Shown here piece after piece: positions 6,705 through 59,710 of a stretch of 64,000 nt of DNA. The position numbers were made by a program, and so were the translations under genes. The stretch comes from a virus. Below the pieces are notes generated by a model. It saw nothing but the letters and a program-made list of their open reading frames with translations, ran no database searches and was not told where the DNA came from. The stretch is from the IMG/VR virus record IMGVR_UViG_3300045988_175328, positions 160,001 through 224,000 of that record, one strand, 5' to 3'. Position 1 is the first letter of the stretch. Every line of letters begins with the position of its first letter.

Positions 6705-7120
6705 AACATTTTATTGATCAAGCTTCATTGAACGAAACAAGTATTGAATACTTAGTCTATAAGTTAAATGAAGTCATCCGAAATCTTAATAACAAACCCG
6801 ATATTCATGATCTTGAGTACTGGGAAGATTATTTCTCTAAAATAAAAGCCCGCGAAGAAAATCTTACGTATGAAGATATTCTCGAAGGGCTTAAAAATAA
6901 GCCTAGCTTTAGCGAAGTACGCGAAGAAATTCGTGCCGAACTTACTAAGCTTATTGACGAAATTAACCAACGTATCTACCAGCCATCTCTCGAACAATTA
7001 CTTCGAGTTATCGGCGATAGTTTACAGGAACATATTCAACGAATGGCGCAACAATATCTTGATCGTTCAATCAACGATATTAAAGAACAATTAAGCGCTG
7101 AAATTATTTACTGGTCCTAG
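6701..7120 (+). CDS. hypothetical coiled-coil protein (chaperone/connector-like)
   Basis: ORF translationally coupled to the upstream gene, with helical, charged composition. Confidence 0.45.
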   Translation: MKHFIDQASLNETSIEYLVYKLNEVIRNLNNKPDIHDLEYWEDYFSKIKAREENLTYEDILEGLKNKPSFSEVREEIRAELTKLIDEINQRIYQPSLEQLLRVIGDSLQEHIQRMAQQYLDRSINDIKEQLSAEIIYWS

Positions 7121-7128
7121 GAGAACAA

Positions 7129-10100
7129 ATGCTTAAATCTAGAATCCATTTTGGCCTTTACGATCCTCGTAAAGATAGAGGTATTAATTTTAATGGTGGC
7201 AACGGTGGAAGTGTTACGCCATCTGCACCTACAACAGATTTAACTGACTTGTCTAATGCTGTTAAAGCTGCCGATCAAGCTGTTAAAGCTGCTGAACAAA
7301 AATTAGCAGAAACGAAAGCGACTGCTGATTCTAATAAAGAAAAAACGGCTGAAAATAACTCCTTAGCCAAAGCTGCTCAAGCTGCTGCTGATGTAGCAAA
7401 AGCTTCTGCAGAACTTGCGAAAGCTGAAGCAGCTGCGGCCAAGGCGAAAGGTGAAGAAGCTGTTGGTCTTGCAAATGCTGGCACAGCTAAAGCAAACGAA
7501 GTCGAAGCTAAAGCTCAAGAAGCTAAAGTTGCGGCCGATGCTGCTAAAGAAGCTGCTGATGCTGCTAAAGCTGCGATCGAAGAAGTCAAAGCATTAGCTC
7601 AAGAAGCTAAACAAAAAGCAGAACAAGCTGCTGCCGGTAATGCAACTCCAAGTGCTCCTGCATCTGATCCAGCTGCTGCTCGAAAAGCTGAAGAAGCGAA
7701 ACAAGAAGCCGCTGCCGCTAAAGCTGCTGTTGAAGAAGCTAAACCAAAAGTTGAAGCTGCAAAACAAGCTGCCGATGAAGCAAAAGCAAAAGCTGAAGAA
7801 TTAGGCCCTAAAATTGAAGAAGCCAAAACTCTTGCACGTAAAGCTCAAGAAGATGCTAACCTTGCAAAAGCTGGCCTCGAAGAAGTTAAACCTAAAATTG
7901 ATGCAGCGAAACAAACTGCTGAAGATGCTAAAACTAAAGCTGATGAAGCTAAAGCTGCAATCGACGGTCTTAAAGAAAAGAACGACGAATTAAAACAAAA
8001 AGTTAACGAAGCATTAACAGCTGTTCAAGGTCAAAACGACGGCATCTCTGAAGCTAAAACTAAAGCTGCCGATGCTCTTGGAAAAGCTAACGAAACTCTT
8101 CAAAAATTCCCAGTTCTCGATGCTAAAGTCGATACAGCAAAAGAAGTAGCGGAAGCTGCTAAAGCAAAAGCTAACGAAGTAGAAGCTATTGCTAATGCTG
8201 CGAACGAAGCTGCATTGGCAACTAATCGTGCTATCAGTGAATTAACTCCTAAAGTTGAAGAAGCTAAAACTCTTGCAACAGAAGCAAAAGAAAAAGCTAA
8301 CGAAGTCGAAGGTAAGGCTACTGAAGCTAAAACTGCAGCTGGTGAAGCTACAGCTAAAGCCGAAGCTGCCGACACTAAAGCACAAGGAGTTAAAGAAGCT
8401 GTCGACACTTTAAAACAAGAAATTGCAGCCGATAAAGAAAATATCAAAGCTACTTACTTACCTAAAACAGAAGCAGCTGCTATGTATCAACCTAAAGGTG
8501 AATACGTATCCTTAACAGAACTTGCTGAAAAGATTCGTGAAGCTAATGACGGTGATCTAAAAGCAACTGATGCTGACGCTAAATATGCGACTAAAGCTGA
8601 GATCGAAGCTCTTAATAAAGCAATGACTCCTGAAGCAGTCGCTCAAATTAAAAAAGCAATCCAAGTTCTTCAAGACAATCCTGACTTGATGGAACAAATC
8701 GCTAAGAAAGCGAATGCTGATACAGTTTATACTAAAGAACAAATGGATCACGATCTTCAAGAATTACGTAAATTAATTACTGATCTTGAAACTAAAGTTA
8801 AAGAACCAGGCGAAGCTCCTGATTTAACTCAATTCGTTAAACTTTCTGAATTAAGTGAAAAAGTATTAGCCCTTGTCGACTTAACTCCTTACTTAACAAA
8901 AGAAGAAGCTGAGCGTACATATCTTAAAAAAGTTGATCTTCCAGATATCGAAGCTATCAAAACTCAACTTGCAACTAAACTTGACGAAAGTGCATTGCAA
9001 ACAGTTACTCAAACTCTTGAGTTATTAGTGACTGATGTACAAGCTAATAAAGCTGACGTTCTTAAATATAAACAACAAATCACTGAAGCTAACGATAATG
9101 CAGCTGCTGCTAAAGCAAAAGCAGAAGGATTAGAACCTCGCGTAGCTGGTATCGAAGAAAAACAAGAATTTGTTAAACGTACCGTAATGGAAGCTTCTGC
9201 AAAAGCTGATGCCGCTGGAGGACAAATTCAATCTATTCGCGAGTTCATCGATAATTTACATGTTCCTGAAGTTAGCGGTTTCGCAACTAAAAAAGAAGTT
9301 GCAGGCAAGGCCGATAAATCTCAATTAGAAGCTCTTGCTACTAAAGAAGAATTAGGTGCTAAAGCAAATGCAAGCGACTTAACTTCTTTGGCAACTAAAG
9401 AAGAAGTAGCAGCTAAAGCAAACGCTTCTGATTTAACTTCTTTAGCCACTAAAGAAGAAGTAGCGGCTAAAGCAAACGCAAGTGACTTGACTTCTTTGGC
9501 TACTAAAGAAGAATTACAAGCTAAAGCTAATGCAAGTGATTTAACTTCTCTTGCTACAAAAGAAGAGTTAGCTACTAAAGCTAATGCATCTGACTTAACA
9601 CCTTTAGCGACAAAAGAAGAAGTTAATGCTGTCGATACTAAAGCTACTGGATTAACAACTCGCGTTGAAACTTTAGAAAATGCAACTCACTTCACAAAAG
9701 CTGAAGCTGATGAAGCATATCAACCAAAAGGCGAATATGCTCTTAAATCTCAATTAGATGCAATTGCTGGTCTTGACTCTGCAACTGTTGAAAAATTAAA
9801 AGCTATGCTTACCGATTTAGAAGCGAACGGCAACGTTGCTGCTATTGTTGAAAAACTTGGTAAAGTATACACTAAAGAAGAAGCTAATGGCTTACTTGCA
9901 GCTCTTGCTACTAAAGAAGAAATTGCTGATGTTGTTAAATCTCCAGCTCTTGCGGCTTTAAAACAAGAGTTAGAAACAGCTATCGAAGCAAATGCTACGA
10001 AAGAAGAATTAGCAGCTAAGGCAAACGCTAGTGACTTGACTCCTCTTGCTACTAAAGAAGAGCTTACTGCTAAAGCTCAAGAGTTAACAACAGTTATCGA

Positions 10101-25397: not shown

Positions 25398-25410
25398 CAA
25401 ATAATAATAA

Positions 25411-25447
25411 AGAGAGACCTCTATATGGGGTCTCCTCTTTTTTTTTA
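25411..25447 (+). terminator. intrinsic terminator
   Basis: GAGACC 25414-25419 / GGTCTC 25429-25434 stem followed by a 10-nt T-run. Confidence 0.65.
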
Positions 25448-25576
25448 TTTTCTGGGATCCCCTCCGGGATCAGGATTCCTCCGCTACGGCTCAGCCTGCG
25501 CTCCGGAATAGGCCAGCCTATGGCTGTCCGTTAGGAGCGTTATCATTAGGTAGAGGTATAACGATAGAGGAAATAA

Positions 25577-25992
25577 AAATCCTCATTTATGAGGGTTTAT
25601 CCTTAGTAAGGAGGAAGATAGAAAGTAAAAATGTTTTTCTTCTTAAGGGGCAAGCCCCTTAACAACCCCGCCACCCCTGCGGGATGGACCGAACTGGCGG
25701 TGGATGAGGTCGTCCGAAACGACGTCAAACTAAAGGAAAAATCCTCACTTGTGAGGAAACTTGCTCCTGAGTACGAGCTAAAACTGCTTGCGAGGAAAAA
25801 TCCTCGTTGTTGAGAGCACTTGCTCTTCGAAGGCCCTGGCGGTGTCGGAGAGAGGAGTAGGTGCTGTGGTCCTGAATAAGACATTAAACTGTTTCAGAGG
25901 AGAAAATCCTCTGTTGTGAGAGAGCTCATTTAACTCTCTGTTTTAATTAAGCCAGTGTAGAAATATTTGCTGGTGTTTTCGGGCGCATGCCC
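25577..25992 (+). promoter_or_regulatory. gene-free cluster of repeated motifs (4 AAATCCTC hairpins, 2 CCTGA..TAAACTG boxes, 1 TTAAGGGGC palindrome, GCCAG..CTGG hairpin, GC clamp)
   Basis: AAATCCTC at 25577, 25739, 25798 and 25904. Boxes at 25766-25786 and 25871-25891. Hairpin at 25951-25973. GGGCGCATGCCC at 25981-25992, abutting the SD. Confidence 0.6.
25643..25669 (+). repeat. TTAAGGGGCAAGCCCCTTAACAACCCC element, copy 1
   Basis: Exact 27-mer, also found at 34215, 35218 and 38170, with a variant at 41909. Confidence 0.85.
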
Positions 25993-32135: not shown

Positions 32136-32140
32136 TAATA

Positions 32141-32700
32141 AGGGGTGCCCGAGCGAAGCGAGGGGTTAACGCCCCTTTTATTTTTTTCTAATAACCGTCT
32201 CCAACGGATCTAGCGAGCGAAGCGAGCGATTAACGAACCTACTATGTTTAAAGGGCGAGCGAATGCGAGCCCTTGTTAATGGACTTGTTTATATGAGGCG
32301 AGCGAAGCGAGCCGTTAATGTACCTATCTTAAGTTTAGTAAGGGCGAGCGAAGCGAGCCCATTAAAGAACTAACTTAAAGATAGTAGCGATGCGAACGAA
32401 GTGAGCCGAGCTGTTGGTCCTTACTATAGTATAGTCGGCGAGTGAAACGAGCCGTTATAGTATAGTACTTATATATAGTATTAATAGAAAGAACCCGAAG
32501 GGTTATTATGTATAATAGTATATATAAGCGAAAAAGGGAGCGTGAGCGACAGAAGGAGAGGCGGCGAACGAAGTGAGCCGTTGTTTGTTTCTTTGTTCCT
32601 GTATATATAAGAAAAGACAAGACAATTTGTTTTCGTCTTTTTGTTATATATAGTATAAAGAAAAAGAATAAATGGGCGCGAGCGGCAGCGAGCGATTGTT
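32141..32700 (+). repeat. array of at least 9 GCGAGCGAAGCGAGC-type hairpin repeats
   Basis: Perfect GCGAAGC cores at 32153, 32217, 32302 and 32348. Degenerate copies near 32253, 32386, 32437, 32560 and 32674. Spacing is irregular at about 45-115 nt. The first copy is embedded in the terminator of the upstream gene (GGGG..CCCC plus a T-run, 32162-32187). Confidence 0.8.
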
Positions 32701-32827
32701 TGTTCTTGTATACTATATAATAGTATAAGAAAGACAAGAATTTTTTTGTTTGTCTTATAGTACTATATAGTATTAATAGTAAAAGAAATAAAAAAAAGAA
32801 TGCCGGAAGTGGTCTTGAAGAGATTTA

Positions 32828-33481
32828 TGGTAATATAAGTCATGGTACATGACTTAACCCGTGGGAATTGTGGACGACCCTTCCTTCCGGTGCATGTACC
32901 TTTTTTATTTTTTGTCGCTGGCTCTTATTTAATTTTTGTTCTTGTTATATACTATATATATAATAATAAAAGAAATTAAAATAAGAATCGGCGCCGAGAA
33001 AATTTTGAGTAATATAAGTCTCGAAGAGACTTAACCGTGAGGTAGAATGGCCGGATGAATTGCTATTGTCTTATACTATATATATAGTAAGACACATAAC
33101 ATATCGCCGCCCGAACCCTTTAAAAAATTTTATTATTAAATTAATTTATATTTTTTAATTTTTTCGCCCCTGGTATTTTATTATAGTACTATATAGTAAT
33201 AATATATAAACATAACAACATAATAATAATCGCCCGGGCTTCCTGAAAAAATTTTTGGTAATATAAGTCTCGAAGAGACTTAACTCCTTACCCCCGGTAT
33301 CTTGATCCCGTAGGGGTCTTATTGTACTGTATCTACACTATAGTACTTACCGAACAAAATGTTTCTTATCTTACTTTTTATTCGGTTGTACATAGGGTTA
33401 GACACTTCGGTACATTAAAAAATTTTTTTTCTAAAAAAATGACTAACGTAACTTTTATGAGTAATATAACTAACGTTAGTT
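32828..33481 (+). repeat. four tandem ~200-nt units, each with a TG(G/AG)TAATAT extended -10-like box directly followed by a perfect hairpin
   Basis: Units at 32828-32855 (AAGTCATG-GTA-CATGACTT), 33006-33032 and 33256-33281 (AAGTCTC-GAA-GAGACTT), and 33458-33481 (AACTAAC/GTTAGTT). Each is preceded by an A/T run, a GC palindrome (CGGCGCCG, GCCCGGGC) and TATAGTACTATA-type palindromes. Confidence 0.7.
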
Positions 33482-33540
33482 TTCTTCGAAGAGAAGTAAG
33501 CTGAAACTGCAAGGCTGCCTGCTCTACGACTGCCCGTACG

Positions 33541-34200
33541 GTTTTTTATAGAAGAATGGTAGTGTATTAATACTGTACTGTTAGTACTACTAGTACTGTA
33601 CTACTCGACCCACACCTTTTGTGGCTGTGCCCTAAAAGGACGGGCCACTCTAATAGTTTTTTTACAGAAATTGTAGTTAATTTGTACTATTTCTAATGCA
33701 ATATTAATAGTAAAACTGCATTGGTTTTTCTGTACTTATAGATATACTAATTGCATTAGTTTTACAGATACAATTGTATTGGTTTTACAGTACCAACAGT
33801 TAACTAACACTACAGTACTTACAGTACTAATAAGACCGTACCAATGGTTTTAATGGTACTATAGTAAGATTGTACCATTGCCAATACAGCACTGCAAATA
33901 AAACCGTACTGTTTTGCAGTACTAAATGGTAATTAAATTGGTATGTTAATACAGTACTAACAAAACTGAACCAATGCTATTAATAGTACTACAGTTAAAC
34001 TGTATCAACAAGACAGTACCTATAGTACTATCAGAACTATAGTTAGATTGTATCAATAAGACAGAACCAATAGAACTATTGAAGCTATAGAAAGACTGTA
34101 CTAATTAAACTGTACTAATAGTATTAACAGTACATATAGTAAAGTAGTATTATATTAATAATTGTAATAGTAGTATTAATAATAAGAAGAATAAAGAAAA
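33541..34200. repeat. GTAC-rich iteron-like array
   Basis: I count 21 GTAC (8 of them AGTACT) between 33575 and 34133. A degenerate ~13-nt unit A(A/G)A(C/T)TGTA(C/T)(C/T)AAT recurs every 20-35 nt. There is no ORF. Confidence 0.7.
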
Positions 34201-34214
34201 GAAAAATTTTTTTC

Positions 34215-34241
34215 TTAAGGGGCAAGCCCCTTAACAACCCC
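34215..34241 (+). repeat. TTAAGGGGCAAGCCCCTTAACAACCCC element, copy 2
   Basis: Exact 27-mer preceded by GAAAAATTTTTTTC. Confidence 0.85.
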
Positions 34242-34462
34242 AAGTTGGTGAAGTTTAAAACAGCAGTAATATAAAGACTGTGTTTTTTGTATCACCTCCA
34301 ATACCGAAACACACATCATAATGTTTCCTCCTTTCTAAAATGATGAGAACTGAGAGCTCGGTTGAAACTTAGACCGAGCCTTGGTCTTATCGCGTTTACG
34401 CGTAATATACGAGTCCTGTAAGGACTCGATAACTGGAAACGATGTTAATTTATAGGAATATA

Positions 34463-34487
34463 GCCGCCCGTTTGGGCGGCTTTTTTT
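34463..34487 (+). terminator. intrinsic terminator
   Basis: GCCGCCC-GTTT-GGGCGGC followed by TTTTTTT. It closes a ~250-nt hairpin-rich ORF-free stretch (34242-34487). Confidence 0.8.
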
Positions 34488-34508
34488 GTTTTATTTGAGG
34501 TGTTATTT

Positions 34509-47630: not shown

Positions 47631-48127
47631 AGGGAAACTTGCAGGTAGAAATAGCTTTTAGCTATTCAACGAAGAAACTGAATTGCTGGGAACCCCTAAA
47701 GCTCAATTAACTACAATATAGATTTGAAATATAATCAAGTATGAATGTGGCGAAAGCAGAAAAAATAATTGAGATAAGATATGGTTAAACCCTAAGTCTT
47801 AAGATAATGGGCAATCAGCAGCGAAGCTCCGAATAGGAGAACGTTCAACGACTATTCCTCGTGAGGGAAGTACACCGTAAGCGATTGACGGTGGAAGTGG
47901 TGTCGCCTAAGTCGCAATAGCGATATGGATAAGATATAGTCTGTGCTTATGCGAAAGTATAAGATGCGCGTAATGGCGCTGGTTAGGAATAGCGATCCTG
48001 ATTGAACGAGACCTCACAAAACATGGTTCTAAAATGTCCTGTAAAAGTTTTACTGAAAAGTTGTTTTTTAGTAAAAGTATGTTATAATAATCTCGTAATA
48101 TAGTAATTAGAAAGCGAGGTGATAATA

Positions 48128-49378
48128 ATGTATGTAAATATGAAGCAACAGGTAAAACATCTAACAAAAGAAAAATACAATATCCTAAGAGAATTATGTA
48201 GGACTGCTAAGAATTTAAAAAATGAAGCAATTTATAATATTCGACAACATTATTTTCAAGAAAAACAATACTTGAGATATGAGTCGAATTATCATGAACT
48301 AAAGTATTCTGAAAATTATAAGCTTTTAAATTCTAATATGGCACAACAAACTCTCAAGGAAGTTGATACAATGTTTAAATCATTCTTTGCTTTGATTAAA
48401 ATGGCAAAGCAAGGAAAGTACAGTTTTAAGCATATACGATTACCTAAGTATCTGCCTAAAAATGGATATTCAAATTTAATCATTGCACAATTTAAAATTA
48501 AAGATGGTATTTTAACTATTCCAGTTTCTAATGCTTTTAAGGAAAAGCATGATATGAAAATTCAGATCAAAATTCCCAAAGCATTAGAAGGTAAAAAGAT
48601 TAAACAGATTCAAATTATACCTAAATTTAATGCTAGGTTCTTCGAGATTCAATATATATATGAAGTTCAAGAAGAAGATTTAAAATTAGATACCAACAAT
48701 GCACTGGCTATTGATTTGGGAGTTAATAATTTGTGTACTTGCGTTACAAACGCTGGTAGATCTTTTATTATCGACGGAAGGAAGTTAAAATCTGTTAATC
48801 AATTCTTTAACAAGAATTATGCTAAACTACAATCTATTAAAGACAAACAGCGTATCAAAAGACAGACGAAACAACAATATTTAATTTCTCTTAAGAGAAA
48901 GAATAGGGTTAACGATTATATCAATAAAACATGTCGATATATCATAAACTATTGCTTATCTAATAATATCGGAACTTTAGTTATTGGTTATAATCAGTCA
49001 TTTCAATGTAAAACTAATTTAGGTAGGAGAAACAATCAAATTTTTACTCAATTGCCATTTGGTAAGATTCGAGAAAAATTAGAATATTCGTGCAAACGAT
49101 ATGGTATTAATTATATCTTACAAGAAGAATCTTACACTTCTAAAGCTAGTTTTTTTGATAATGATGAGTTACCTATTTATAATGCTGACAATCCACAGGA
49201 ATATGAGTTCAGTGGAAAGCGTGTTAAAAGAGGATTATACCAGACTAAAGATGGTTATCTTTTTAATGCAGATTGTAACGGCGCATTAAATATTCTTCGT
49301 AAAAGTAGCGTTGTAGACCTTAGTGTCTTATACAGTAGGGGCGATCTGGACACGCCTAAAAGAATAAGGATCTTTTAA
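48128..49378 (+). CDS. tnpB: TnpB-like RNA-guided endonuclease (IS200/IS605 OrfB family)
   Basis: The RuvC triad contexts are ALAIDLGVNN, LQEESYTSKASF and FNADCNGALNILRK. The KRVKRGLY variant lacks the CxxC zinc finger. The ATG at 48128 follows GAGGTGA. The gene has its own extended -10 promoter, TGTTATAAT, at about 48081-48089. Confidence 0.85.
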   Translation: MYVNMKQQVKHLTKEKYNILRELCRTAKNLKNEAIYNIRQHYFQEKQYLRYESNYHELKYSENYKLLNSNMAQQTLKEVDTMFKSFFALIKMAKQGKYSFKHIRLPKYLPKNGYSNLIIAQFKIKDGILTIPVSNAFKEKHDMKIQIKIPKALEGKKIKQIQIIPKFNARFFEIQYIYEVQEEDLKLDTNNALAIDLGVNNLCTCVTNAGRSFIIDGRKLKSVNQFFNKNYAKLQSIKDKQRIKRQTKQQYLISLKRKNRVNDYINKTCRYIINYCLSNNIGTLVIGYNQSFQCKTNLGRRNNQIFTQLPFGKIREKLEYSCKRYGINYILQEESYTSKASFFDNDELPIYNADNPQEYEFSGKRVKRGLYQTKDGYLFNADCNGALNILRKSSVVDLSVLYSRGDLDTPKRIRIF

Positions 49379-56887: not shown

Positions 56888-57163
56888 ATGATTATCGAAA
56901 CAGAAACTAATTTAATTGTGCCGCCAGGCGAAACAATTAAAGAACAAATGAAGCAAAAGAATATTTCTTTAAAAGAATTAGCTAAAGCTATTGATGAAGA
57001 TGAAGAACGAACTCAAGAATTACTTGAAGGTGATATTCGCATGCAGCGAAAACATATGGAAGGACTAGAGCAAATTCTAGGAATACCATTTAGATTTTGG
57101 CGCAATCTTGAAGACAACTATCGTAACGAACTAGATGAATGGGAAGATGAGGCCTGGTCATGA
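56888..57163 (+). CDS. HigA/VapI-like XRE-HTH antitoxin-type protein
   Basis: PPGETIKEQMKQKNISLKELAKAI..GD..M....EGLEQILGIPFRFWRNLEDNY. The ATG at 56888 follows AGAGGTGA. Confidence 0.55.
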   Translation: MIIETETNLIVPPGETIKEQMKQKNISLKELAKAIDEDEERTQELLEGDIRMQRKHMEGLEQILGIPFRFWRNLEDNYRNELDEWEDEAWS

Positions 57164-57615
57164 GTCTTGAAGAAGAATTAAATGCATACAAACTAGATCT
57201 TTTAGAGAATACTAAATACTTCACGATAGAAGAATTAGCTGATTTGTATGAGAATGGTCAGCTAGATGTCCACTACAATGCAGACAAAACTGAACATTGG
57301 ACTAATAAAAAACAAGATAAATTAATTAAAAATATTCTCTTAGGATTTCCGATTCCTACAATCTTCTTACAAGAGAAAGATGGAGAATATCTTGTTATAG
57401 ATGGGTATAATAGACTTTTTACTATTTTAAGATTTTTGAATGTAATCGTAGCATGGAATGCACATGTATATAGATTCCCATACAAAGTTGAAATGTATCA
57501 TCCAAAATTGCCATCTTTTAAAGAGACAACTTGGGATAATGGCGGCAAAAGACTTTCGAAAAAATTAAAAGAAAAGTTTTTAAATTATCGAATACCAGTA
57601 TATTTTATAAAATAA
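57160..57615 (+). CDS. short DUF262 (ParB/Srx-like) domain protein
   Basis: KLIKNILLGFPIPTIFLQEKDGEYLVIDGYNRLFTILRFL matches the DUF262 core (LI.SIL.G.PIP.I.L....Y.VIDGQQR) with YNR in place of QQR. ATGA-coupled to the HTH gene. Confidence 0.55.
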   Translation: MSLEEELNAYKLDLLENTKYFTIEELADLYENGQLDVHYNADKTEHWTNKKQDKLIKNILLGFPIPTIFLQEKDGEYLVIDGYNRLFTILRFLNVIVAWNAHVYRFPYKVEMYHPKLPSFKETTWDNGGKRLSKKLKEKFLNYRIPVYFIK

Positions 57616-57642
57616 TTTTTGTTATTTTTCATTTATTTACTC

Positions 57643-57671
57643 TTGTATTTTTTGTAATATAGGAGTATAAT
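57643..57671 (+). promoter_or_regulatory. sigma-A-type promoter
   Basis: TTGTAT at 57643-57648, a 17-nt spacer, and TATAAT at 57666-57671. Confidence 0.6.
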
Positions 57672-57677
57672 ATTTGT

Positions 57678-58952
57678 TGAATAAATATTGTTTGTAGTTT
57701 TATATTATTTTTTTAATTTTTAGATGTCCCATACGTCTTAAAATCATATTTTATATAATAAAAGACAGTAGTTTAACTATTGTTTCTGTGATTTACAATG
57801 AAGAAATACCCCTATGTTTCTTCTCAATGCAAAACTACAATCCCATCTAAGTTAGGTTAGGATAACGTGACCTAACAGTTCGCTCCAAAATCCTTACACC
57901 AGGATGGCTTAGTCTCTACAAGAGCTTGCGACTCTTGAATAGTGGACAGGCATGGGAGGGTGTCCTTGTACTTTAATTTTAATTTGTTTTTAGTATTTTA
58001 ATACTGATTATGTAACAAAAACGATTTTTATAACAAAAAAACGAATCATTAACACTTTAAAGTACATGTAGGCTATATGTAAGACCTAAAGGGAATACCT
58101 GGCTACCTTCTGTAACCGTATCTGAAAGCCGGAGAAAGCATTGCTACGGATTCGTCATGTAGTAGCGTTTGCAGTCCTTACCTGGACTTTAAATAGCGGG
58201 TGTTGCGAGCCCATGTAAGCGAAATCAGCAAAGGTACCCGTACTTAGTCTTCCTGAGTACGGATCCTACAAACGGGATGAAGGAACTACTGAATCCCTTA
58301 TAGTATTACACTGTAATGGTAATTAGTAAGGTAAACATAAGAAATAGTGTCTCGCAAGCATGAGTTACCGAACGTTGCATTAATATAGCTATATTAGCTG
58401 TGAATTGGATCTTTCGCCACAGTTTACACTGTAAATGTAGATCTGGAGCTAATATATAGGCGGCCTGTGTTAATGAGTAGTAGCTATGATTAAATGAGTT
58501 CGGGGGTATCAACTGGACGAGCTAATGAAGACGTAAGTCTTTGTTAGTATGTTGAGGTTGGCTTCCGTATGGACGATATCGGAGCCGGATTCCGTTCGAT
58601 AGGCAAGGTGCGAGAGATCGTGAACCCTACCTAGCATGTAGAAGTAGAACCTAGACGCATGGTAAGAACGGTTATTATTTTTCTAGCTGTTGTATCTGAA
58701 TATGTCGTAAGACATTGGAAGGATATATGCAAAAGCAGTACAGTTGTTAAATAAAACTGGAAGTAGAGATCTAATAAAGTATAGGAAGACGCCTTAGGGC
58801 AAAACTTAATTTTTTAATCCAGTAGGATTAGTCTGCCCAAAAGGAGTTAACTTACCCCCGTACGAAGAATATAAGCTGTTATCTTAAGATAGCTGGCGTA
58901 AACTGATTAGATCGGTTTGTCAGAACTGTCTTAGGATAACAGCTATTTTTTT
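57678..58952 (+). ncRNA. ~1.27-kb ORF-free, GC-richer, hairpin-dense transcription unit (large structured RNA candidate, class unknown)
   Basis: No plus-strand ORF of 60 aa or more. Many perfect 7-10-bp hairpins (57791-57814, 57850-57875, 58238-58262 and others). It ends in a 15-bp stem at 58874-58888/58930-58944 followed by a T-run. Confidence 0.5.
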
Positions 58953-59198
58953 ATACTGAAATTGATACTGTAGAACTGATACTTATTATCTGACTTAACT
59001 CTAATGGTAACTGCGTCCTATTTATATTTAATAAGGCTTTAGATAGGGGGCGTGAAAATAGAGCTGAATCTTTATCAAAAGCAGAGTAATCTCTGCGCGT
59101 TGATAATCAGTTAGTATCGGTAATACAGAATTAAGATAGAATTAGTGCTATGTTTGTAGCTTCGGTAATTTGCAGATACAGAAAGGACAGGACGAGAA

Positions 59199-59633
59199 TT
59201 GAGTAAGGCTAAAGAACAAGAATTAGAACGAGTAATTACAGAGTTATTAGAATGTTATGATTTCGAGGCTAATACCGATCTATTGATTCGAGCCATGAAT
59301 ACAGAATTAGTAGGATTATATGATGATAATGGTGACTCTTTTACTATCGGCAATCTTACAAGAGGTGCTATGCGAGTACTGTTATCTAACTGGGACAAAT
59401 GGAGAATTACAGAAGAACAGCCTGAAATTGTAGGGATGTTTGTCATATCAGTTATTAAGAACTATATCGGAATGAGAGCATATGATCCTAGAGCGGCCGA
59501 ACGAATCAACTTATACATGCAAATGTTTCTAGCAGAAGATGAAGCAGATGTTTATCAATTACACTTAGATTTCATACTAGGAGTAGACGATTGCGACTGT
59601 GAGGAACTAGACGAAGTAGAGGTGTTACATTAA
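59199..59633 (+). CDS. hypothetical protein, paralog of 59711-60163
   Basis: TTG start. Shared pattern ..G(D/E)S(F/L)T(I/L)GNL..GA...L......GM(F/Y)....(I/L)......DP...ER...Y......F(I/I)LG. Confidence 0.5.
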   Translation: MSKAKEQELERVITELLECYDFEANTDLLIRAMNTELVGLYDDNGDSFTIGNLTRGAMRVLLSNWDKWRITEEQPEIVGMFVISVIKNYIGMRAYDPRAAERINLYMQMFLAEDEADVYQLHLDFILGVDDCDCEELDEVEVLH

Positions 59634-59710
59634 GATATCATGGCTGCCTCTAGTTCTGAAAGGGAGGAGTCTGCCCAAAATTAAGTATTATTAAAATAGG
59701 AGTATTTAAA

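Follow-up and report, generated by a model that had tools for sequence, protein, structure and literature searches.

Positions 57616-59198 of a 64,000-nucleotide (nt) stretch of viral DNA (IMG/VR record IMGVR_UViG_3300045988_175328, positions 160,001 to 224,000 of that record; hereafter the window, in whose numbering positions are given unless a relative is named) form a gap free of open reading frames (ORFs) that very probably encodes a functional structured RNA. The locus is carried by an uncultivated jumbo phage whose genome measures about 220-228 kb, with a GC content of about 28%. The RNA belongs to no described family and, to judge from comparison with its relatives, would most likely represent a new, clade-restricted family of large ornate phage-borne non-coding RNA. 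The fuller statement, that the locus yields one large RNA acting in trans, is favoured with less assurance. The gap displays the features that generally mark a large structured non-coding RNA: it lacks coding capacity, it has diverged less than expected under neutrality, and it carries compensatory base pairs on one strand. An earlier note on this DNA had proposed a non-coding structured transcription unit on the plus strand, and the analysis presented here supports that proposal.

A non-coding gap between two complete genes

The gap separates the stop of a gene for 151 amino acids (aa) at 57615 from the start of a gene for 144 aa at 59199. These are two complete, unrelated genes, the first with its own stop and the second with its own start. 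Every long ORF in the window, including those for tail proteins, is on the plus strand, and the longest plus-strand ORF within 57616-59198 is of 31 aa, in agreement with the earlier statement that none of 60 aa or more occurs over about 1.27 kb. Stop codons number 28-51 per frame across all six frames, and TAA, TAG and TGA are each so abundant in all frames that stop-codon recoding cannot rescue a gene. Gene callers made no call inside the gap in any of the relatives, and the degraded protein gene that the note had kept in mind was found neither by translated searches nor by the analysis of stop codons. The gap conceals no recoded gene and no recently broken one. The GC content, correctly described before as higher than in the surrounding genes, is 0.38-0.43 over 57900-58800 versus 0.23-0.30 in the flanks.

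The 31-aa ORF itself (58659-58754) was considered as a toxin-like peptide and rejected. It is not preceded by a Shine-Dalgarno sequence, and it undergoes non-conservative changes where the RNA model expects wobble changes, with isoleucine or phenylalanine replaced by serine exactly at the U-G/C-G alternation predicted by that model. Blastn against GenBank phages revealed no similar DNA, ARAGORN reported no tRNA or tmRNA in the 64-kb window, and the window contains no other copies (paralogues) of the RNA.

Conservation within one phage clade

Through look-ups of exact proteins, the window was assigned to metagenomic contigs of ENA and Logan assemblies that measure 218-228 kb. One of them, k141_26322 (227 kb), is practically identical to the window. 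The gap recurs in the same position in no fewer than 13 sequence variants of one tight clade of ~220-kb phages. The protein homologue clusters (2 for the 144-aa protein, 6 for the GmrSD_N protein and 7 for a 198-aa protein) all come from the same clade. Two types of locus can be distinguished. Type A, which comprises the window type, L001, L012/13, L027/29, L023, L019, L082, L084 and L083, harbors the whole 57616-59198 interval at 86-95% identity. In type B, formed by L020-22, L024/25, L026 and L080, homology ends at 58382.

The rate of change was compared with that of the flanking genes in five relatives. At four-fold degenerate sites of 15 flanking genes, identity is 0.77-0.83, against 0.95-0.96 in the 3' domain of the RNA (D2, measured over 58466-58872), 0.90-0.96 in the preceding domain (D1, 58058-58383) and 0.95-0.97, with a single outlier at 0.79, in the 5' module (unit 1). 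The gap has evolved 3-5 times more slowly than synonymous sites, and its identity of 90-97% between variants, which exceeds that of the four-fold sites of the flanking genes, indicates purifying selection.

A short identity was also seen in IMG/VR record IMGVR_UViG_3300029316_000313 (L085), whose reverse strand at 1058-1078 matches window positions 58116-58136 exactly over 21 nt. It is judged to be probably due to chance, because it lies inside a probable DNA methyltransferase coding sequence and nothing similar extends beyond it.

A covarying structure specific to the plus strand

The earlier note had made its reading depend on conserved, covarying structure in homologous loci, and the counts of double changes in three alignments, termed A3, A4 and A5, bear this out. 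The alignment of the body of the RNA in nine type A variants (A4) gave an RNAalifold consensus of 277 pairs, in which 99.4% of the cells form standard pairs. Nineteen of these pairs (53 cells) are changed on both sides. Six slid registers, used as controls, gave 0-2 such pairs, and the observed values were not attained in any of 500 column shuffles. The alignment of D1 in nine variants, type B included (A3), has 84 pairs with 98.7% of the cells paired, and 8 double-change pairs versus 0-1 in slid registers (again 0/500 shuffles). Unit 1, aligned in 13 variants (A5), has 56 pairs, of which 7 show compensatory double changes. For instance, GAAGAAA/UUUCUUC becomes GAAGAGA/UCUCUUC or UGAAGA/UCUUCA, and AUCC/GGAU becomes GCCC/GGGC. 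An all-against-all scan for column covariation proved uninformative, as it returned too many transition-driven false pairs at the given divergence, and it was replaced by these structure-based counts.

The structure is specific to the plus strand. The consensus energy is -258 kcal/mol on the plus strand versus -200 kcal/mol on the reverse complement. Against dinucleotide shuffles, the single plus-strand sequence of 58050-58960 folds to -276.6 kcal/mol (z = -4.8), and the minus strand to -225.5 kcal/mol (z = -3.1). Separate in-house shuffle z-scores were discarded as unreliable, since a coding control itself scored -3.4.

Individual helices named in the earlier note can be recognized within this structure. 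All three perfect helices exist, and two are located essentially where they had been placed (GTTAGGT/ACCTAAC at 57851-57857/57870-57876 and CCGTACT/AGTACGG at 58238-58244/58256-58262). The third, GAAGAAA/TTTCTTC, is at 57800-57806/57817-57823, about 9 nt from the reported 57791-57814. The palindrome TTACACTGTAA indeed occurs twice, at 58306-58316 and about 58424-58434.

Domain architecture

All parts of the RNA described here are on the plus strand. Unit 1 (57800-57970) is a multi-stem module of about 170-190 nt that includes the hairpins 57800-57823 and 57851-57876. It is joined to the body by an AT-rich linker with indels (57971-58057), in which deletions of 5 nt and of about 18-21 nt are found in L001, L023 and L019, and in which the promoter scan flagged nothing. 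Domain D1 (58063-58383) is a multi-helix domain with a GC content of 0.42.

Most telling is a long-range helix between 58298-58309 (5' strand) and 58477-58489 (3' strand). It comprises 12 pairs, 3 of them with double changes (U-A/C-G, C-G/U-A and U-A/C-G), and is fully paired in all nine variants, the recombinant L083 included. This helix, which spans both the hypervariable hairpin and the breakpoint between types A and B, argues for D1 and D2 being carried by one molecule. In type B loci, the sequence matching the helix is palindromic, and L024 and L026 are mismatched. The hypervariable hairpin (58384-58466), whose 5' edge at 58382/58383 is the type A/type B breakpoint, shows identities of 0.70-0.98 and changes at an about neutral rate. 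Its stem is nevertheless kept by compensatory changes (8 double-change pairs), and a 15-nt insertion is found in it in L027, L023, L019 and L084.

Domain D2 (58490-58872), which is absent from type B loci, is the near-invariant core, closed by helix 58498-58508/58853-58863. It carries GNRA-type tetraloops, e.g. GUAA at 58534-58537 and 58708-58711, and a GAGA/GGGA alternation at 58614-58617. On the plus strand, ten one-sided changes, mostly G-U compatible, preserve a G-U or standard pair, and three cells are broken. The predicted fold of D2 draws on folding energy, GNRA-type loops and wobble-compatible changes. Little of the type A 3' half is kept in type B, the hairpin 58558-58588 with loop AUGGACGAUAU being one of the retained pieces. 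A 5-bp GACGA/UCGUC loop-loop contact of this hairpin with UCGUC at 58153-58157 is possible, and both loops of this candidate contact are invariant.

The 13-mer AGTCTGCCCAAAA, said earlier to recur downstream, was found at 58830-58842 and 59668-59680 as described. With its GCCC end, the first copy contributes to the 3' strand of helix 58788-58801/58834-58848. Nine loci have both copies, the second lying between the downstream genes, where it is also retained in the D2-less type B loci L024 and L026. Part of the motif that adjoins the 13-mer is present in type B loci in inverted orientation. The repeat is only mildly unexpected, as 16 of 100 shuffles yield at least 3 matches at up to 2 mismatches.

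Promoters and terminator

Three promoter-like sites precede or lie at the start of the unit, all on the plus strand. The first, P1 (57643-57671), is made of TTGTAT (57643-57648), a 17-nt spacer and TATAAT (57666-57671), exactly as previously noted, and it is kept in 9/9 aligned variants, several of which read TGATATAAT. It is missing from the list of the consensus promoter scan because its -35 element agrees with TTGACA at only 3 of 6 positions. P1 was also considered as a repeated phage promoter type, an idea that was dropped, as no repeats of it occur in the window. The second site (57677-57706), with TTGAAT, an 18-nt spacer and TATATT, scores 9/12 in the consensus scan, and its sequence is conserved. 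The third, P3 (57749-57759), is a promoter-like -10 element, TTTTATATAAT, whose TATAAT is invariant in 8/9 variants. P3 may mark a cassette or start boundary, because L024 and L026 have unrelated RNA cassettes inserted 2 nt downstream of it.

An intrinsic terminator (58874-58952) closes the unit. The 15-bp stem reported at 58874-58888/58930-58944 and followed by a T-run corresponds to the base of a 32-pair hairpin (58874-58944), after which comes a run of seven T (T7). The 32 pairs are 100% paired across nine variants, with 4 one-sided wobble changes, and a positional homologue of the terminator is kept in type B loci. Transcription would run from the promoters at 57643-57759 to the terminator at 58952. 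Beyond it and outside the RNA, 58962-59198 holds, on the plus strand, the promoter and the 5' untranslated region (~200 nt) of the downstream 144-aa gene. This promoter (58962-58989: TTGATA, 16-nt spacer, TATTAT) scores 10/12, and the identity of 58962-59198 is 0.86-0.91.

Comparison with known RNA families

The earlier note had suggested either membership in a class such as GOLLD or ROOL, or a new class. The Rfam 15 collection (4227 models) was searched by cmscan, with the whole window at gathering score and the region of the RNA at E<=10. No match was obtained at gathering score over the whole window, and the region gave only noise at E<=10, namely RT-16 (E = 5) and a microRNA model (E = 4.8). 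As a positive control, the same cmscan detects RAGATH-18 in relatives, with scores of 59-76 bits. Membership in GOLLD, ROOL or any other Rfam family is therefore not supported by a search that finds nothing at gathering score and noise at E<=10, and the reading as a new class survives. More precisely, the covariance models of GOLLD, ROOL and OLE (presumably RF01998, RF03087 and RF01071, respectively) and of the raiA motif gave no match. The models of RNase P RNA, tmRNA, 6S RNA, signal recognition particle RNA and rRNA fragments gave none either. The group I intron (RF00028), whose catalytic core spans P3-P9 and includes the G-binding site in P7, was not matched even at E<=10, and no gene is interrupted. 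Group II introns are marked by a domain V/VI hairpin with the AGC triad and by a GUGYG 5' end. Their models (RF00029 and D1-D4) also had no match at E<=10, and in the sole D5-like candidate, 58558-58588, the loop is a pentaloop and the 5' side is bulged. There was no match in the window to RAGATH-18 (RF03064) or HEARO-type omega RNA, which lie at the 3' end of a tnpB or iscB gene, and the nearest tnpB (48119-49378) is 8.7 kb away.

GOLLD is a structured, ORF-less RNA of ~800 nt, widely occurring, often phage- or prophage-borne and usually located beside tRNA genes. The RNA described here resembles it in being large and phage-borne, with many helices and no ORF, and in both the 3' part is the most conserved. 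It differs from it in its neighbours, since the usual tRNA genes are missing from this 64-kb window, and in its confinement to one phage clade versus a broad occurrence. GOLLD forms multimeric cages (PMC12286853). ROOL is likewise a large ornate RNA in a phage context, but its size and architecture differ, and the RNA described here is narrowly distributed. ROOL measures ~580 nt and is frequent in phage and prophage contexts of low-GC bacteria. OLE is chromosomal, is found in extremophilic Firmicutes, and has dedicated partner proteins encoded adjacent to it. Whereas these partner genes adjoin OLE, the paralogues downstream of the present RNA persist after loss of D2. OLE is a large, ornate and highly expressed non-coding RNA that acts as a ribonucleoprotein scaffold (PMC3413148), and as such it may serve, by analogy, as a model for the mechanism proposed below. 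Finally, the reRNA of TnpB holds an equivalent position in type B relatives, and TnpB elements target the locus. However, the RNA described here is 5-10 times longer than the reRNA scaffold and has no adjacent tnpB.

Insertions, replacements and cassettes in relatives

The locus is modular. A 1.43-kb IS605-type TnpB element is inserted after CTAC (58286-58289, plus strand), in the apical loop of helix 58274-58297, in L020-22 (type B) and L083 (type A), and the 3' end of this element bears a RAGATH-18 reRNA. In type B, a 415-530-nt AT-rich module stands in place of D2. Three type A features persist in this module, namely the hairpin that bears the AUGGACGAUAU loop, the 58811-58837 motif as an inverted copy, and the terminator as a homologue. 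Within the module, cmscan also detects a RAGATH-18 RNA (59-76 bits) without an adjacent tnpB. RAGATH-18 RNAs are guide RNAs of IS607 TnpBs (PMC11061315). The orphan copies (L024 2784-2860, L026 7999-8076 and L020 9312-9387) are located downstream of a promoter-like TATAAT. Each could possibly be a guide RNA that stands alone and serves, in trans, a TnpB whose gene lies elsewhere in the phage.

The RNA is dispensable rather than essential for phage viability, because D1 is interrupted by TnpB in L020-22 and L083, and L020, L024, L026 and L080 have another module in place of D2.

Extra multi-hairpin cassettes of about 130-200 nt are found exactly after -10 elements. They follow P1 in L012 (10492-10700) and L027 (about 6920-7125), and P3 in L026 (about 6990-7150) and, with a different cassette, in L024 (1858-1984). 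None of them matched Rfam at E<=1. An inverted copy of P1 (AAAAAATACAAGAG) comes after the cassette in L012 and L027, which places this cassette between convergent promoters. Genes for TnpB (OrfB_IS605/Cas12f1-like) are located at 48119-49378 in the window, 7206-8300 in L012, 3486-4574 and 7654-8811 in L020, 1149-2240 in L023, 7751 onward in L082 and 687-1844 in L083. As these positions differ among members of the clade, the elements appear to be actively moving within these phage genomes.

Alternative explanations

Among the alternatives, the one that fares best, a serious if unlikely rival, is that the gap forms an island of cassettes, with unit 1, D1, the variable hairpin and D2 each giving a small or medium RNA of its own that is separately made or processed. 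The multiple promoter-like sites, the cassettes added after P1 (L012/L027) and P3 (L026, L024), the swapping of D2 at 58382/58383 while D1 remains, and the indel-rich AT linker that parts unit 1 from D1 are all in its favour. Yet the long-range helix crosses the A/B breakpoint and stays 100% paired through its three double changes, L083 included, the promoter scan shows no promoter or terminator between D1 and D2, and one strong terminator closes the unit. The earlier note had itself allowed for two RNAs. This stands as far as a separate 5' module of ~190 nt (57800-57970) is concerned, but not for the body at 58.06-58.95 kb, which is joined by the covarying long-range helix.

Much less probable is a cis-acting leader or attenuator controlling read-through into the 144-aa and 150-aa paralogues. 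The RNA is directly 5' of this pair on the same strand, and AGTCTGCCCAAAA is found again between the two genes. A 32-bp terminator with its T7 run nevertheless ends the unit, with a separate 10/12 promoter after it (58962-58989), type B phages retain the downstream genes without D2, and 0.9 kb exceeds known leaders by far. Scarcely better placed, and if anything a little less probable, is a decaying remnant of a mobile element without a function of its own, such as an IS605/IS607 end, a reRNA or an ORF-less intron. TnpB elements are indeed active in these phages, one being inside D1, and the type B module that replaces D2 bears the orphan RAGATH-18 (59-76 bits). The region, however, has no RAGATH-18, HEARO or intron match, and the specific search for a TnpB remnant in the gap was negative, with no coding remnant found by tblastn and no DNA similarity to TnpB elements found by sensitive blastn. 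Moreover, decay would give neither a rate of change 3-5 times below that of synonymous sites nor compensated helices.

A DNA-level element, e.g. a replication origin or a packaging site, is very improbable. It would agree with the conservation, the many hairpins and the lack of an ORF, but not with the strand asymmetry of the consensus energy (-258 vs -200 kcal/mol), nor with the many conserved G-U pairs and one-sided changes, which correspond to C-A mismatches on the other strand. The region is also GC-rich instead of AT-rich, shows no iterons and is dispensable, and a far better origin candidate, in which GCGAGCGAAGCGAGCC occurs six times alongside tandem repeats of 48 nt, is present at 32136-34499. 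A degraded or recoded protein-coding gene is hardly credible, for the three consecutive short minus-strand ORFs (68, 42 and 33 aa at 58306-58732) that could suggest one occupy three different frames, 28-51 stops of all three kinds fill each frame, gene callers are blank in every relative, and conservation tracks helices rather than codons.

Several observations weigh against a single functional RNA acting in trans and have to be set beside the evidence in its favour. The structure was tested on the same sequences from which it was derived, few covariation events are independent, and D2, the largest part, has zero double changes. A single tight clade supplies all the homologues, with neighbouring proteins at least 83% identical and the RNA 85-97% identical, and these genomes are mosaic, so that high identity could partly come from recent recombinational exchange. 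Searches of IMG/VR with two flanking proteins returned no relative, and those with five DNA motifs returned none or only chance matches in coding sequence. The hairpin motif gave only chance coding matches, in high-GC genomes, in JGI metagenomes and GTDB genomes. Directly upstream of D1, no promoter is visible. Phages with a replaced D2 or an interrupted D1 are evidently viable.

Neighbouring genes and other regions of the window

The upstream gene (57160-57615) encodes a 151-aa protein that corresponds to the N-terminal (DUF262) domain of a GmrSD-type restriction enzyme and to no other part of it. This GmrSD_N protein is hypervariable, with 59-95% amino-acid identity between otherwise similar phages, a pattern that fits an arms-race locus. 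Its neighbours include a Panacea-domain antitoxin-like protein and a weak helix-turn-helix match. The presence upstream of Panacea-domain, weak helix-turn-helix and hypervariable GmrSD_N genes suggests an accessory region for host takeover or counter-defence. Downstream, the 144-aa and 150-aa genes are paralogues (26% identity, E = 9e-12).

Two further regions of the window are poor in coding sequence. The first, at 32136-34499, is a repeat-packed 2.4 kb without a plus-strand ORF of at least 70 aa. It contains six GCGAGCGAAGCGAGCC-type units at spacings of 46-126 nt, the 48-nt tandem repeats, TATAGTACTATATAGTA palindromes and many inverted repeats, and resembles a replication origin of the iteron type or else a regulatory array. 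The second, at 25398-25986, has no plus-strand ORFs and the highest GC of the window (0.46), and immediately follows a terminator-like hairpin. Four copies of the hairpin-like AAAATCCTC-N-TTGTGAGR alternate there with GC-rich segments. The region has no Rfam match and may be another structured RNA or a repeat array.

Proposed mode of action and significance

For the reading as one large RNA, the following course can be proposed. Transcription would start from one or more tandem sigma-70-type promoters (57643-57759) and stop at the terminator (58874-58952). The product would consist of the ~190-nt 5' module and a body of ~0.8-0.9 kb (58063-58872), in which D1, the hypervariable hairpin and the GNRA-rich D2 would be zipped together by the long-range helix. 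The folded RNA would most likely act in trans in the course of infection, serving as a scaffold that binds proteins or as a decoy. Its benefit to the phage would be accessory and dispensable, and possibly related to host takeover or counter-defence. We infer transcription and its boundaries, the single molecule, the action in trans and any link to defence. The scaffold or decoy role in a host-takeover or counter-defence region is speculation, and rather unlikely to be right as it stands. A broader scenario is somewhat less doubtful, though still tentative. In it, the RNA would establish a new class, that of ornate phage RNAs of ~0.9-1.2 kb that serve host takeover or counter-defence and whose D2 forms a defined tertiary or quaternary assembly as GOLLD and ROOL do. 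It would reside in a "non-coding RNA island", targeted by TnpB, in which promoter-linked cassettes are exchanged between phages, one of these cassettes being a stand-alone TnpB guide RNA.

To our knowledge, bacterial and phage RNAs of more than about 500 nt with a complex conserved structure and an unknown function are limited to OLE, GOLLD, ROOL and a handful more. Each large ornate RNA has so far led to unexpected biology, the latest being RNA-only multimeric cages (PMC12286853). A further example would offer a new test case for the roles of large phage RNAs, although its narrow distribution restricts immediate use. The combination found here deserves attention, as this sizeable RNA with its near-invariant core is clearly selected and yet dispensable, among putative counter-defence genes of a jumbo phage. 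The natural knock-outs, by TnpB insertion and by replacement of the core, would provide a ready comparative design.

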